From assembly GCA_022791255.1 (NCBI GenBank), contig JAAVYR010000004.1, positions 25,992 through 89,991 on the forward strand: a stretch of DNA of 64,000 nucleotides. Direction: 5' to 3'. The position numbers were made by a program, and so were the translations under genes. The stretch is from Peptococcaceae bacterium. Lineage in GTDB: Bacteria > Bacillota > Dehalobacteriia > UBA4068 > JAAVYR01. How positions within the stretch are numbered: the first letter of the stretch is position 1; every line of letters starts with the position of its first letter. The notes below the pieces were generated by a model. That model had not been told where the DNA came from. It did not search any database and saw only the letters and a program-made list of their open reading frames with translations. Shown here in pieces: positions 14,980-20,302 of this stretch.

Positions 14980-15192
14980 ATGTGGCAATATGAAAAAAAA
15001 TTGCAGTTTCCCATTAACATTAAAAACCCTAACCCCGCCTTAGCAAGCTATATCATTAGTCAATACGGGGGACCAGACGGGGAACTGGCAGCCTCTCTCC
15101 GTTATTTATCCCAGCGGTATTCTATGACAGACGATGTTTGCAAGGGGTTACTGACCGATATCGGTACCGTGTTCCTAAAATGGAGAAAATAA
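14980..15192 (+). CDS. cotJC: CotJC (manganese-catalase-like coat protein) 5' segment, interrupted after codon 63
   Basis: MWQYEKKLQFPINIKNPNPALASYIISQYGGPDGELAASLRYLSQRY…LLTDIGT aligns to the CotJC N-terminus. After ggtacc (15163-15168) the frame diverges (VFLKWRK*). Confidence 0.85.
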   Translation: MWQYEKKLQFPINIKNPNPALASYIISQYGGPDGELAASLRYLSQRYSMTDDVCKGLLTDIGTVFLKWRK

Positions 15193-15229
15193 AAATCTCT
15201 AGCAATCCCGCATCAAGTATGCCTTGCGA

Positions 15230-16774
15230 TTAGCCTTGATATTGGACTGCATGAGACACCCCCTTAAAAAAGATTGTCATTTGTTCCTTGCCTTCAATGA
15301 TAATCTTTTCCACTATCTCCCGATAAAAATCTTCCCGATATACCGCACCAGCTAATATCTCTTCACAACAACCCATAATTTGCTCCATTTTATCCCGTCG
15401 ACTTTTCTCTGTATCTAATACTTTCCCAGCAAGCTGATGGCTTCTTATTTGCTCTTGTAGTTTTCTTATCATCTCTTGGTAGCTCCCATTCTTTCTAGTA
15501 AACAGGTCCTCTCCTATCTGCCCCTGCAAATAGATATGGAGCAATTTCTCTTGTTCCCGCTCTAGCTGGGATAAGCGGTCCGCCCACTGTTCCTGCTGCC
15601 GCTTATCATTACCATCCTGCTGTAACACCTGTTGTATTCCCCCATAAAAAGCAGCCATCCTTTGCCGTCTCTCCTCTGCTGCTATGATTGGCCTCAGCTG
15701 CACGGCCATAGCCTGCAAAAGGATTTGCTCCAGGTAAACTTGACTGATTGTAGGACAAGCGCAAGCAGCCGCTCCCTTTTTGATTTTCCCATAACACTGC
15801 CAGTAAAGATATGTTTTCTCCCCCCGTTTTTTGGTTCTCGCTACCAGCCGATTACCGCACTGGCTGCAATAAAGCTTTCCAGAGAGACCATAACTTTGAG
15901 AATAACGACTGCCCTCTCGTTGCCGCCTGCCCCGCTCTTGTAAGATGGCTGCCGCCTTGGCAAAAAGTGCTGGAGAGATAATTGCAGGATGGTGCTGCTT
16001 TAAAACGATGAATGGTTCTTCCCCTCGGTTTACTTTCTTTTTATGAGTCAGATAGCTAGGCGTATAAGTTTTCTTTTGTACTAAATCCCCCATATATTTT
16101 TGGTTTTTGAGGATTTTCAATACTACATTATGAGACCATTCTTGCCCACCACTAGGCGTAGGGATACCTGCCGCTGTTAATTCCCGCGCAATCAAAGAAG
16201 CACCCTTACCTTCTCGGACAAATTTATCAAAAATCTGCCGGACAACAGCAGCACCAGTTTCTTCAACTTCTAACGCCCCTTGTCGGAGCTGATAGCCTAA
16301 GAGGCTGTGTCCAAAGACAATGCCTTTTTCCATTTGTCGTTTTTGTCCCCACTTGACTCGCTCAGAGGTTTTGCGGCTTTCCTCTTGAGCAATAGAGGCC
16401 ATAATGGTCAGACGAAGTTCTGCGTCTGCATCCAGCGTGTTAATATTATCATTAAGAAAAATCACCCCAATACCCCATTCCTTCAGCTTACGGGTATAGT
16501 AAATGCTATCTAGCGTGTTACGAGCAAAACGGCTAATTTCTTTGGTAAGTAAAATCTGAAATTTGCCAGCTTTGCCGTCTGCCAACATTTTTAAAAAACC
16601 CCGCCGATGGTTTACAGCAGTCCCAGAAGCCCCCTCATCCACATAGATATCTGTTAGCTCCCAATCAGGTTGCTGCTGAATGTATTGGCGAAAAAATTGT
16701 TGCTGATTGGCTAAAGAATTAAGCTGTTCATCCCTTTCTGTAGATACCCGACAATAAGCCGCCGCCTTAATCAC
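15230..16774 (-). CDS. large serine recombinase (SpoIVCA/CisA-like)
   Basis: N-terminal resolvase catalytic domain (IKAAAYCRVSTERDEQ…SLANQ), a recombinase domain, zinc-ribbon cysteines (CSQCGN…CYGK) and a C-terminal coiled coil. Probable GTG start at 16774 (MIKAAAY) rather than the 16822 given in the ORF track. Confidence 0.9.
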   Translation of the reverse strand: MIKAAAYCRVSTERDEQLNSLANQQQFFRQYIQQQPDWELTDIYVDEGASGTAVNHRRGFLKMLADGKAGKFQILLTKEISRFARNTLDSIYYTRKLKEWGIGVIFLNDNINTLDADAELRLTIMASIAQEESRKTSERVKWGQKRQMEKGIVFGHSLLGYQLRQGALEVEETGAAVVRQIFDKFVREGKGASLIARELTAAGIPTPSGGQEWSHNVVLKILKNQKYMGDLVQKKTYTPSYLTHKKKVNRGEEPFIVLKQHHPAIISPALFAKAAAILQERGRRQREGSRYSQSYGLSGKLYCSQCGNRLVARTKKRGEKTYLYWQCYGKIKKGAAACACPTISQVYLEQILLQAMAVQLRPIIAAEERRQRMAAFYGGIQQVLQQDGNDKRQQEQWADRLSQLEREQEKLLHIYLQGQIGEDLFTRKNGSYQEMIRKLQEQIRSHQLAGKVLDTEKSRRDKMEQIMGCCEEILAGAVYREDFYREIVEKIIIEGKEQMTIFFKGVSHAVQYQG

Positions 16775-16973
16775 ACCCCATACCTTCTTCCAGATGAAGC
16801 AAACATTGTTGATATACCTCACCAGAAATCAGCTTTTCATGGTATAAGGATATGAGCAAAGCCTTTTGTATCATGGGCCAAAAGGAGCTGTTTTCCTTCG
16901 TAAGAAATTGACAGATACCGGGTTCTGTCTGCGTTTGAATAAATGTAAACATCATGCTTACCTCATTTTTCAC
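16767..16973 (-). CDS. small hypothetical protein upstream of and overlapping the recombinase start
   Basis: 68-aa ORF ending 8 nt inside the recombinase start, suggesting translational coupling. No known motif. Confidence 0.35.
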   Translation of the reverse strand: MKNEVSMMFTFIQTQTEPGICQFLTKENSSFWPMIQKALLISLYHEKLISGEVYQQCLLHLEEGMGCD

Positions 16974-17033
16974 TGATTATCCTGGTTTTATTTTATGAAG
17001 CGAGCTATTTTCTATGACCATAAAAAAAGCAAG

Positions 17034-18533: not shown

Positions 18534-18559
18534 CTTTCTTTGCTATTCTTCGCCCCTTC

Positions 18560-19681
18560 TTACGCAATGCTGGGACCGATTTGGAAGATGGTCAGAGTCA
18601 CATTAGCACCACCGCTTCCATTATCGCTTAATGCAACAGTATAAGGAGATTTCACCCCTAAAAAGATTTGTTCCCCAGCTTGAAAAGGCGCTGTAAAGCT
18701 ACCACTAATAACAGTTTCATTGCTAAGGAAGGGAGCCCTCGCACCTGCCATTGCGGTCTTTGTGCCACTGCCCACTGAGACGATACCCATGGCAGCGTCT
18801 GCACTAGCACCACTACTAGGCATCACAGAATACATGATTACATATAATCCACCCTGCTGAAAAGTAATCGTTGTATTGTCTGGTTCCAGTGTAATACCAG
18901 TGTTGGTATTGGCTGTTAATGTAATGGGTGCATATGCCCCATCAGAGTCGATAGTTTGCGTTGCAAAAGATGTAAAGTTTGCTACTGATGGCGTCGGTAT
19001 CGTACCAGTGGCACCTGTAGCACCTGTTGCGCCCGTAGCACCGGTTGCGCCTGTAGCACCTGTAGCACCAGTGGCACCTGTTGCGCCCATAGGACCAGTA
19101 GCTCCTGGCAAACCTTGTGGACCTTGAGGACCTTGGGGACCTACCGGACCAGTAGCACCTTGCAGTCCGGTAGCCCCAGTGGCACCTGTAGCGCCTGGCG
19201 CACCTTGAGGTCCTTGGGGACCGATTGGTCCTACAGGACCAGCAGGGCCAGCTACCCCTTGGGGTCCAGTATTACCTCTTAATCCCTGGATACCAGGACA
19301 ACCTACATCACCTTTGGGACCAGGTTCACCTTGAGGTCCTTGAGGCCCAGTAGGACCGGCAGGCCCTTCTGCCCCAGGGCAGCCTCTAGGACCGATTGGC
19401 CCTTGATTACCCTGTGGGCCTTGGGGCCCCATGGGACCTTGGGGACCTATAGGACCAGTAGGCCCCACCTGTCCACCGCAAGAATTACAACCGCAATTAT
19501 GGCAACCACAAGTATCATCACAATCAGTATTTGTATCGCAGTCGCACCAATCATAATTGCGAGAATAGGCTGCATTGCTTACGGTATAGGAAACAGTGGC
19601 AGCAGCTGTTTCATTAGGATAGATTTTCCGAGCGCTGTTGGCATAAAAATCAGCACGAGGATCGCCTGCATAAAAACGCAT
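18560..19681 (-). CDS. collagen-like triple-helix repeat protein, BclA-like (second copy)
   Basis: G-X-Y repeats ([20 protein letters not shown]…), Cys-rich N-terminus ([25 protein letters not shown]) and a C-terminal globular domain. Start trimmed to ATG 19681, which has RBS aaggtaga. Lies 26 bp upstream of the other collagen gene, so probably one operon. Confidence 0.8.
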
Positions 19682-19909
19682 TCTACCTTGTTGAGTTGGA
19701 TATTCTTTCAATCTTTTCCCTCCAATCAAATTATTATCCGGAACGGGAAGATAAATAGAGATGAAAGAGAAATAGTACTAGTTTTCTTCATCAATGTATT
19801 ATATGAAAAGTTTGTCCCCAAGGTGCGAGGGGTTGCCCTGAAAAATAAGACAAATTTATCTGCTGCTAACAGCTGTCCACCCATTGTTGCCCATTTTGCC
19901 TCTTCTATA

Positions 19910-20302
19910 GGTACAGAAGAACTAGCCCACCTGGAAATGGTTGGCACCATCGTGCACCAATTAACCAAGAACTTAAAAGACTCAGATATTGAGGGAACAC
20001 CACTCGCCCCTTATTACATCGATCATGGTAAAGGCGTTTATCCTGCAGCTGCTGCCGGCCAAGCATTTGACGCCATGGCCATCGCCGTAAAAGGCGACCC
20101 TATTGCCGATTTAGTAGAGGATTTGGCTGCAGAACAAAAAGCTCGTGTTACCTATGAAAATATTTTGCGAGTTTCTGACGACCCGGATGTGAATAAAGTC
20201 ATTCGGTACTTACGAGAACGGGAAGTGGTTCACTTCCAACGGTTTGGTGAAGCCCTAGACCGCTTGCAAAGCAAAGCGGCAACCAAACCCAAACGGTTCT
20301 AA
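19910..20302 (+). CDS. cotJC: CotJC 3' segment (from the GT|EELAHLEM junction to the stop)
   Basis: GTEELAHLEMVGTIVHQLTK…GDPIADLVEDLAAEQKARVTYENILRVSDDPDVNKVIRYLREREVVHFQRFGEAL matches the CotJC C-terminal two-thirds. The upstream in-frame part of ORF 19331..20302 is antisense to the collagen gene and is not coding. Confidence 0.85.
   Translation, partial: GTEELAHLEMVGTIVHQLTKNLKDSDIEGTPLAPYYIDHGKGVYPAAAAGQAFDAMAIAVKGDPIADLVEDLAAEQKARVTYENILRVSDDPDVNKVIRYLREREVVHFQRFGEALDRLQSKAATKPKRF

Follow-up and report, generated by a model that had tools for sequence, protein, structure and literature searches.

Interruption of a sporulation gene by an intervening DNA element is well established, the members of the class being skin in sigK, vfbin in spoVFB, vrin in spoVR, SPbeta in spsM, gin in gerE and yin in yabG. 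Here we describe a 4,747-bp element within the spore coat gene cotJC, found in a 64-kb stretch of DNA from a gut Peptococcaceae bacterium (assembly GCA_022791255.1, contig JAAVYR010000004.1, forward-strand positions 25,992 to 89,991; the whole stretch is called the window below, and coordinates count from its first nucleotide). Its sequence gives good support to the view that it is a new, compact, non-phage member of this known class, at a target gene that the literature has already mentioned.

Among the described systems, skin owes its mother-cell specificity to sigma-E/SpoIIID control of either the recombinase or the directionality factor (SpoIVCA; CD1231/CD1234). Expression of spoIVCA is sigma-E/SpoIIID dependent in B. 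subtilis (PMC517825), and in C. difficile the same holds for CD1234, the 72-amino-acid (aa) directionality factor of skinCd (PMC5025042). Regulation in skinCd bears on the directionality factor alone, and the recombinase is constitutive, whereas both genes of the cotJC element apparently form one operon behind a mother-cell-type promoter. The targets differ as well: sigK encodes a regulator, and excision gates the whole late programme, while CotJC is a structural or enzymatic coat protein. The gin element in gerE of B. cereus ATCC 10987 (PMC5595907) is likewise non-phage and splits a small mother-cell gene, and it shares a large serine recombinase, a short common core and a very small, unannotated protein, which in the cotJC element is a candidate directionality factor; the factor of gin, GirX, has 42 aa and is required together with GirC, and both are expressed in sporulation phase (PMC5595907). 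However, gin is 28.6 kb long, carries three recombinases and a restriction-modification system, and its excision and in vitro recombination have been proven, whereas the cotJC element has 4.7 kb, one recombinase and spore-surface-type cargo, and is known here from sequence alone. SPbeta, in which SprA and SprB act (PMC4191935, PMC5499854), allows a spore-envelope gene, spsM, to be rebuilt by a large serine recombinase together with a small directionality factor behind a sigma-E/K-type promoter, but it is an active prophage of 134 kb that can also leave by a second, SOS-driven route, and the cotJC element has no phage functions. The heterocyst elements (fdxN element, XisF) offer an analogy only: in them a large serine recombinase removes DNA in the course of development, within a cell that is terminally differentiated, but phylum, cell type and target genes are all different. 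In NCBIfam, XisF is among the best family matches of the recombinase described here (E 1e-33, below cutoff).

The original prediction allowed that an interruption of cotJC might be undescribed, which is not the case. Galperin et al. 2022 (bioRxiv 10.1101/2022.02.25.481979) list a skin-like element that interrupts cotJC in Laceyella sacchari FBKL4.010, and in a passage citing Abe 2013, Kohm et al. 2021 (bioRxiv 10.1101/2021.11.22.469490) name cotJC as a frequent integration target. In Laceyella (CP025943.1), cotJC is also interrupted by an element with a SpoIVCA-like recombinase, and its fragments (2604060..2604290 and 2612416..2612766) include an N-terminal piece of similar length; that host belongs to the Bacilli and its element is about 8 kb long, the comparison being by description rather than by sequence. 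The Laceyella case takes up a single sentence plus one supplementary table, where its att sites, partner protein, promoter, cargo and selection are not analysed. A literature search that did not cover Abe 2013 found no paper on the attachment (att) sites, directionality factor or excision of a cotJC element, and the supplements of Mageeney 2020 hold no Mn_catalase or cotJC entry.

The split cotJC gene and its reconstruction

The cotJA-cotJB-cotJC operon of the window is intact apart from the in-frame split of cotJC, as had been claimed from the bare sequence; the list of open reading frames (ORFs), direct reading and translation agree on this. The operon and the element within it are laid out as follows.

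14529..14717, plus strand: cotJA, 62 aa from ATG (mechanical ORF start TTG 14469); Pfam CotJA, E 2.9e-13
14701..14964, plus strand: cotJB, 87 aa; Pfam CotJB, E 2.3e-27, full profile
14980..15167, plus strand: cotJC 5' segment, codons 1-62 and 2 nt of codon 63 (…LLTDIGT)
15168..19914, minus strand: cotJC-intervening element, 4,747 bp, with four genes, all antisense to cotJ
19915..20302, plus strand: cotJC 3' segment, from the last base of codon 63 to codon 191 (…EELAHLEMVG…), stop 20300-20302

CotJA has 62 aa in related loci too. In the unexcised state, the 5' frame of cotJC runs through seven foreign codons to a stop at 15190-15192, and the resulting 70-aa product is NCBI MCI8335839.1. The Mn_catalase profile of Pfam matches the first half of CotJC with its positions 1-64 and the second with positions 61-198, and this domain, together with the gene order, places the split protein in the CotJC family (PF05067). 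Once one copy of GGTAC and all that separates it from the other copy (4,747 bp) are removed, a single ORF of 573 nt plus stop appears, as expected of a gene-intervening element. Its product has the predicted CotJC-like length of 191 aa and is colinear with intact homologues: thousands of uninterrupted relatives (186-198 aa) cover 95-100% of its length, and the best of them is 90% identical over 99% of the query. The element lies at the codons for the conserved DIG-TEE motif of CotJC; the alignment is ungapped at the junction and TDIGTEE-AHLE is invariant. The contiguous alignment proposed as a check was thus obtained, including with B. subtilis CotJC, to which the joined protein is 53% identical. 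With the joined protein as query, tblastn recovered its two halves from the 64-kb window (E 6e-40 and 4e-87) but no paralogue, and the window holds no further CotJC-like sequence and no further recombinase.

The breakpoints had been placed at 15168 and 19916 as blunt ends. The split itself is confirmed, but the ends are not blunt: the real boundary is a shared GGTAC and the reading frame resumes at 19915. The att sites are the following.

15163..15167: attL core GGTAC, common to attR
19910..19914: attR core GGTAC, common to attL
Predicted attB junction sequence: GGGGTTACTGACCGATATCGGTACAGAAGAACTAGCCCACCTGG
Predicted attP junction sequence: GCCCATTTTGCCTCTTCTATAGGTACCGTGTTCCTAAAATGGAG

The common core is GGTAC in the window and the 10-bp GGTACAGAAG in two close relatives (loci L001 and L009), with GGTA as the minimum across the clade. 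Since this minimal core is GGTA, the crossover dinucleotide is probably GG or GT within the five base pairs kept by the window. The attP reconstructed from the right and left ends forms an imperfect dyad (…CCCATTTTG…/…CAAAATG…) whose centre is the GG of GGTAC; out of 25 positions, 17 are symmetric in L001, 14 in L009 and 12 in the window. A short common core and imperfect inverted repeats at the att sites are again features of the class. The nearest intact cotJC relative (L089; 90% identity in protein, 78.5% in DNA) has GGCAC instead of GGTAC at the core.

The recombinase gene stands at the left edge of the element.

15230..16774, minus strand: large serine recombinase, 514 aa, NCBI MCI8335840.1 (100%), catalytic-serine motif YCRVST

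Its product has the Resolvase, Recombinase and Zn_ribbon_recom domains (PF00239, PF07508 and PF13408), all above the Pfam cutoffs, and its stop codon lies 62 nt from attL, which bears out the prediction of a SpoIVCA/CisA-like large serine recombinase with its 3' end at the left junction and gives the element the edge recombinase typical of the class. YCRVST is conserved in every member of the recombinase family. The protein matches a PHROG integrase (E 5e-121), is homologous to the SPbeta SprA/YokA structures 9dxh and 9dxd (E about 1e-17), and is 100% identical to database entry P0121. The P0121 cluster also holds a recombinase at least 90% identical to that of the window but split into two ORFs, P0250 (226 aa) and P0251 (287 aa), on one 3,442-bp ENA contig; a frameshift or sequencing error would explain this, as would decay of that copy.

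Conservation and selection in close relatives

The close family comprises seven further independent assemblies (L001 and L004-L009), whose recombinases are 54-70% identical to that of the window. Metagenome contigs are the source of all six closest recombinase clusters (54-70% identity), and L009, retrieved by a scan of GTDB species, is a metagenome-assembled genome (MAG) of an uncultured Peptococcaceae bacterium from a mouse gut catalogue (recombinase 65% identical). Wherever the contig is long enough, the order is cotJA, cotJB and the 5' part of cotJC, then, on the opposite strand, the recombinase, an ORF of 62-65 aa and one or more large proteins. The break falls at the identical nucleotide in every close locus (ACNGATATHGGTAC|), both element ends are seen in L001 (4,732 bp) and L009 (4,412 bp), and the window is colinear with L001 over the whole element at 76% DNA identity. 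A chimeric contig joining the cotJC halves to foreign DNA is conceivable for a sequence taken from a MAG, but the same junctions, at the same nucleotide and with a defined core, recur in at least eight independent assemblies from different samples and pipelines. An assembly or binning artefact is excluded, because the break nucleotide is shared by the close loci and the window and L001 align colinearly.

The check proposed for uninterrupted cotJC in close relatives gave intact homologues (best 90%), whereas no empty attB of the window's own lineage was found in metagenome contigs. Among 5.8 billion protein clusters there is no intact CotJC more than 90% identical to the joined protein, and therefore all sequenced members of the lineage carry the split. 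Each CotJC half of the window is nevertheless 100% identical in amino acid sequence to its counterpart in L009, at a DNA identity of about 80%. Over the 191 codons there are 72 synonymous and 0 aa differences, with a synonymous divergence (dS) of about 1 and a ratio of nonsynonymous to synonymous rates (dN/dS) of about 0.004, which holds in each half separately. The N-terminal fragments of six loci give dN/dS values of 0-0.014, and the recombinase is under purifying selection too (0.07-0.10 against family members). Moreover, pairwise distances in the host region (cotJA, cotJB and the 5' part of cotJC) correlate with those of the recombinase (r 0.82, exact Mantel p 0.007). Together these results say that the element would be an old resident, mostly inherited vertically. 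The dN/dS values across both halves lend indirect but strong support to a functional composite gene: cotJC seems to have been kept under strong selection while interrupted, which would make sense only if it is rejoined. The architecture originally proposed, a split mother-cell coat gene with an edge recombinase that is rejoinable rather than dead, is thus favoured by the colinear joining, the seven further assemblies and the dN/dS of about 0.004.

The same data bear on the possibility that cotJC merely served as attachment site and was knocked out by an inert insertion, CotJC being dispensable or backed up and developmental excision not taking place. In favour of this, CotJC-type Mn-catalases often occur in several copies, as with CotCB, CotD and a third homologue in C. 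difficile (PMC11222575); a paralogue may lie beyond the 64-kb window; the contig scans described below yielded no excised form; and one close relative, L001, has a second break in its 3' half. But both halves are free of stops and frameshifts, two diverged carriers differ by 72 synonymous and no amino acid changes, and the recombinase, small ORF and promoter are all conserved. In addition, because no known member of the lineage lacks the insertion and host and element distances co-vary, the halves appear to have stayed under selection while split. An inert insertion is, on balance, unlikely.

The small ORF and its promoter

Upstream of the recombinase lies a small gene that the original prediction did not mention, as it did not mention the two collagen-like genes described further below.

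16767..16955, minus strand: small ORF, candidate recombination directionality factor, 61-62 aa, stop overlapping the recombinase start by 8 nt
16990..17017, minus strand: sigma-E-like promoter of the small ORF and recombinase operon, TCATAGA-N13-CATAAAAT
17022..17064, minus strand: intrinsic terminator hairpin with U-run, ending the collagen-gene transcript (-26 kcal/mol, z -4.97)

The small ORF is kept in position and sequence (…QKALLxSLYxxKLISxxxYxQC…) in all seven close loci. A hidden Markov model built from these seven ORFs found a homologue in 84 of 88 loci fetched by recombinase similarity, each time on the strand of the recombinase and upstream of it, with the motif QKSILxSLxKRxLLTxSQxERC in the wider clade, including loci whose recombinases are only 42-46% identical. 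The 8-nt overlap is a property of the close family; in the wider clade, the small ORF lies 150-400 nt upstream. Its AlphaFold2 model is helical, with a confidence (pLDDT) of 74 that exceeds 90 for residues 24-56. A phmmer search of 1.8 billion representatives gave about four true relatives, the longer matches being repeat artefacts. A TnpW/TnpV-type accessory protein was considered and set aside, as Pfam lent it no support. We propose that the small ORF encodes the recombination directionality factor, because it accompanies the serine integrase across the clade and, in the close family, the two are coupled in translation. In this it may be likened to GirX (42 aa), SprB and CD1234, all small proteins paired with recombinases.

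In B. subtilis, the sigma-E consensus is kmATATT-N14-CATACAhT and that of sigma-K is AC-N16/17-CATAnnnTA. Promoter typing used these B. subtilis sequences. The box at 16990..17017 resembles the sigma-E rather than the sigma-A type. In 7 of 7 close loci, [G/T/A]CATAGA-N13/14-CATA[A/G]AAT is found 34-39 nt before the ATG of the small ORF, directly after the terminator, equivalents of which are also found in related loci; the rest of the intergenic sequence is unconserved in the close loci. Within the 64-kb window, the box is the sole match to this pattern on the minus strand, and a sigma-70 scan found no sigma-70-like site upstream of the small ORF and recombinase. A sigma-E/K-type promoter on the recombinase had been suggested as a check, and at the level of the motif it is there. 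We infer from this conservation that the small ORF and recombinase would be expressed in a sigma-E-dependent, mother-cell-specific manner.

The wider clade has a related signal. Upstream of its small ORFs the consensus is GTTATAT.GTACAA.C.tT....cATAcAtT (core GTTATAT.GTACAA…CATACATT). ATA-N14-18-CATAnnnT occurs in 36% of distinct upstream regions versus 0.8% of random windows, and GTACAA-N7-12-[CA]ATA in 54% versus 0.4%. The GTACAA(G/T) box stands within the spacer of the sigma-E-like promoter in L010-L088 (for example in L017, upstream of 6026) and in the 'site 3' elements of L048 and L072. It resembles, without being equal to, the C. difficile SpoIIID consensus KRTAACARK (PMC5025042). The Peptococcaceae subfamily that includes the window is without this box.

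Two further boxes match the sigma-K pattern, in both cases as a motif match only.

14438..14465, plus strand: sigma-K/sigma-E-like box upstream of cotJA, ACCTCAGCTTATTGGTTTACATATACTA = AC-N17-CATAnnnTA
19797..19824, minus strand: sigma-K-like box upstream of the collagen-like genes, AC-N17-CATATAATA

AC-N17-CATAnnnTA has about eight matches in the window, so that each is weak individually. The position of these two, before cotJA and before the collagen-like genes, fits the sigma-K regulon of C. difficile, which includes cotJ-like operons and bclA1-3 (PMC3789822). Mother-cell expression of cotJ is known from the literature on B. subtilis and C. difficile (PMC3789822), organisms other than the host of the window.

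Collagen-like cargo

The remaining two genes of the element encode large proteins.

17124..18533, minus strand: collagen-like protein, 469 aa, with Cys-rich N-terminus, GXY repeats and BclA_C-type C-terminal domain
18560..19729, minus strand: collagen-like protein, 389 aa, with Cys-rich N-terminus, GXY repeats and BclA_C-type C-terminal domain

The 469-aa protein matches Pfam Collagen (E 1e-39), and its tail alone matches BclA_C (E 2.6e-9, 37.5 bits against a cutoff of 38). All five family members of this tail match BclA_C (best 4.7e-15), the others above cutoff, and as a profile the tail matches the exosporium ExsF/BxpB structures 7r1m, 9h3d and 8d02 (E about 1e-3). For the 389-aa protein, the Collagen match has E 6e-25 and the BclA_C match E 7e-6 (26.4 bits, below the gathering score); its sole database relative, P0241, is precomputed as PF18573. 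Both proteins are likely to belong to the BclA_C domain family, with matches at or near threshold. Their Cys-rich stretches (18480-18533 and 19530-19640, minus strand) precede the GXY repeats and match no family; they might serve in cross-linking or anchoring. The cargo is not fixed across the close family, because L004, the most divergent member (54% recombinase identity), carries another gene beside the small ORF (2-526), with a non-collagen C-terminus (…ISFAVQTEGEQSLNLDDVSFSVN). Conversely, this type of gene is also a normal neighbour of cotJ outside elements, because in L089 a BclA_C collagen-like gene (1035-1559, minus strand), 67% identical in DNA to the 469-aa cargo gene, lies convergent to and immediately downstream of an intact cotJC.

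Both cargo proteins match many PHROG 'tail fiber' families. Given that skin, vfbin, vrin and yin are prophage-like (PMC4191935; PMC10747680), one may ask whether the element is a decayed prophage, its collagen-like genes being old tail fibres, its recombinase an old integrase and the cassette on its way to loss. However, the PHROG matches are confined to the low-complexity GXY repeats, for which reason they were rejected as prophage evidence, and the globular tails match BclA_C and exosporium ExsF/BxpB instead. The element has four genes only, none of them for phage structure, packaging, lysis or replication, and no related phage genome was found in the collections. Furthermore, the four-gene content is kept across lineages with saturated synonymous sites, and the collagen gene of L089 lies beside an intact cotJC, outside any element. 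We regard a prophage remnant in the course of decay as very unlikely; the idea concerns origin and is compatible with developmental excision today.

The wider recombinase clade and other break sites in cotJC

In 83 of the 88 loci fetched by recombinase similarity, cotJC fragments are present, and in about 70 the 3' end of the recombinase abuts a cotJC N-fragment ending at residue 62-64 (some BLAST extensions are longer). The recombinases of these ~70 loci are 42-46% identical to that of the window. Their genomes belong to Lachnospiraceae, Oscillospiraceae, Ruminococcaceae, Roseburia, Acetatifactor and others, isolates included, and where both ends are visible the elements measure about 3.0-10.7 kb. 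A different element of about 9.7 kb occupies the same CotJC residue in opposite orientation in L002 (1885-12076) and L003. In L002 its gene content includes a relaxase of the MobA/MobL type, a coupling protein resembling TraG and a small resolvase, along with toxin/immunity-like genes, and its recombinase ORF reads in frame into the 3' half of cotJC, producing the gene call of a 691-aa fusion (P0223). In L086 (6731-16529), three tandem recombinases of the cotJC-targeting clade (42-43% identical to that of the window) stand beside one cotJC N-fragment, which suggests serial integration or an element array at one site.

Such findings could be taken to mean that the element is a mobile one, whose excision in vegetative or stressed cells serves transfer, with restoration of cotJC as a by-product. 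Related recombinases at 42-46% identity do occupy the same cotJC site in elements of 3 to more than 10 kb, some of them with a relaxase and coupling protein (L002 MobA_MobL, TraG-like). The tandem recombinases of L086 hint at repeated integration, and in the closest pair of carriers the recombinase has diverged more at synonymous sites than the host. The element of the window, however, has no relaxase, coupling protein or type IV secretion system genes and is without transfer, replication or phage genes. Its recombinase operon has no sigma-70-like promoter and has instead a conserved -10 box of the CATA type, as is typical for sigma factors of the mother cell. Phage and plasmid collections yield no relative save chromosomal scaffolds with recombinase and cotJC: the best two, from human faeces and labelled 'UNVERIFIED: Bacteriophage sp.' (MT839280.1, L091; MT837874.1, L092), are linear scaffolds rather than circles, each with a clade recombinase and a cotJC fragment, and are probably pieces of bacterial chromosomes filed as phage. 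Excision in the service of transfer therefore seems an improbable account of the window's element.

Within cotJC, residue 63 is not the only target. The gene is also broken at about residue 30 and about residue 135 by unrelated large serine recombinases (26-30% identical), and it is interrupted at up to three positions in L048, L011, L012, L027, L029, L056, L068 and L072. In L048 (CAKUPP010000004.1, 2600-13118), all three sites are occupied and cotJC is in four pieces, of which three are visible and the extreme N-terminal one lies beyond the locus. Both residue-135 elements examined (L048 and L072) have a small ORF behind a GTACA[AG]G…CATAC box, and this arrangement was not seen in the three residue-30 elements examined. 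Because at least three recombinase lineages target residues ~30, 63 and ~135 of a 190-codon gene, we tentatively raise the possibility, which still has to be called doubtful, that cotJC serves recombinase elements with developmental excision as a general, multi-site landing pad throughout the gut Clostridia.

Flanking region

Outside the cotJ operon, the element is flanked by ordinary chromosomal genes: YchF GTPase, DUF4430, thioredoxin, TrmO, gamma-glutamyltranspeptidase and tRNA-Thr.

20347..20378, strand not assigned: bidirectional terminator-like hairpin, 3' of cotJC
20445-20520, minus strand: tRNA-Thr(GGT), just 3' of cotJC

About 210 bp around the tRNA gene are 93% identical between the window and L009 (reverse complement 6090-6300), far above the neighbouring protein-coding DNA. 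Two minus-strand ORFs flanking the cotJ locus, 13032-14219 (395 aa) and 20580-21407 (275 aa), have no Pfam match at E <= 0.01.

Proposed excision and points to be weighed

Taken together, the sequence evidence makes it probable that a small, non-phage intervening element is excised from cotJC in the sporulating mother cell and that cotJC is thereby rebuilt. Early in sporulation, a sigma-E-type mother-cell factor would transcribe the operon of small ORF and recombinase. The small protein would act as directionality factor and let the recombinase join attL and attR, with crossover at the GG or GT of GGTA, release of a 4.7-kb circle and restoration of the cotJABC operon, which would then be expressed from its own sigma-K/E-type promoter. 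The forespore would not express the system, and the element would be inherited vertically. The collagen-like cargo behind its sigma-K-like box would provide a probable spore-surface (exosporium-type) component in the same cell. The resulting order, excision first and then the rebuilt cotJ operon and the cargo, would follow the logic of the spoIVCA and CD1234 systems.

Several observations weigh against this account. The sigma-factor assignment is drawn from B. subtilis consensus sequences and motif conservation. The small ORF matches no family in Pfam, NCBIfam or PHROGs, and a Foldseek search of the PDB with its model gave no significant neighbour and no informative fold match. Neither of the products expected from excision was met with: the attP junction, searched as a degenerate 50-mer, had 0 matches in JGI metagenome contigs and IMG/VR, and an intact attB of the window's lineage had 0 matches in metagenome contigs. 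The paralogue check covers the 64-kb window, and another cotJC copy may be located elsewhere in the genome. In the closest pair, the proportion of synonymous differences (pS) is 0.68 for the recombinase against 0.38-0.41 for the host; because the recombinase exceeds the host in synonymous divergence, some replacement of elements between related hosts is possible, and the case for selection since insertion would then be weaker. Finally, the 3' half of cotJC in L001 is broken again (reverse complement ~6190-6200) after …EDLAA, followed by DGAIW*, so that one excision is not enough to rebuild cotJC in every carrier. This second break resembles that of L048 (…EDLAADGTFA*) and is followed by HTH_36 and Cys_rich_VLP genes (locus genes 658-1687); it is probably due to a second element at 'site 3'.

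Implications

If excision is confirmed, cotJC would be added to sigK, spoVFB, spoVR, spsM, gerE and yabG on the list of sporulation genes that programmed DNA deletion rebuilds. The element would be an unusually compact and tractable example, because its four genes fit into 4.7 kb, its att sites are defined and there is a clear candidate for the directionality factor, and the recombinase and small protein, with sites of about 50 bp, would be a new orthogonal serine-integrase and directionality-factor set for genome engineering. It also comes from a setting, the Peptococcaceae and gut anaerobes, in which control of sporulation has been little studied. The wider survey suggests that cotJC is systematically mis-called as fragments or fusion proteins in hundreds of genomes of gut Clostridia. 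Should the landing-pad idea prove true, one to three mother-cell excisions would rebuild cotJC in a process that is common and so far uncharacterised in the gut microbiota, and the cassettes would be exchangeable carriers of spore-surface genes, such as those for BclA-type proteins.

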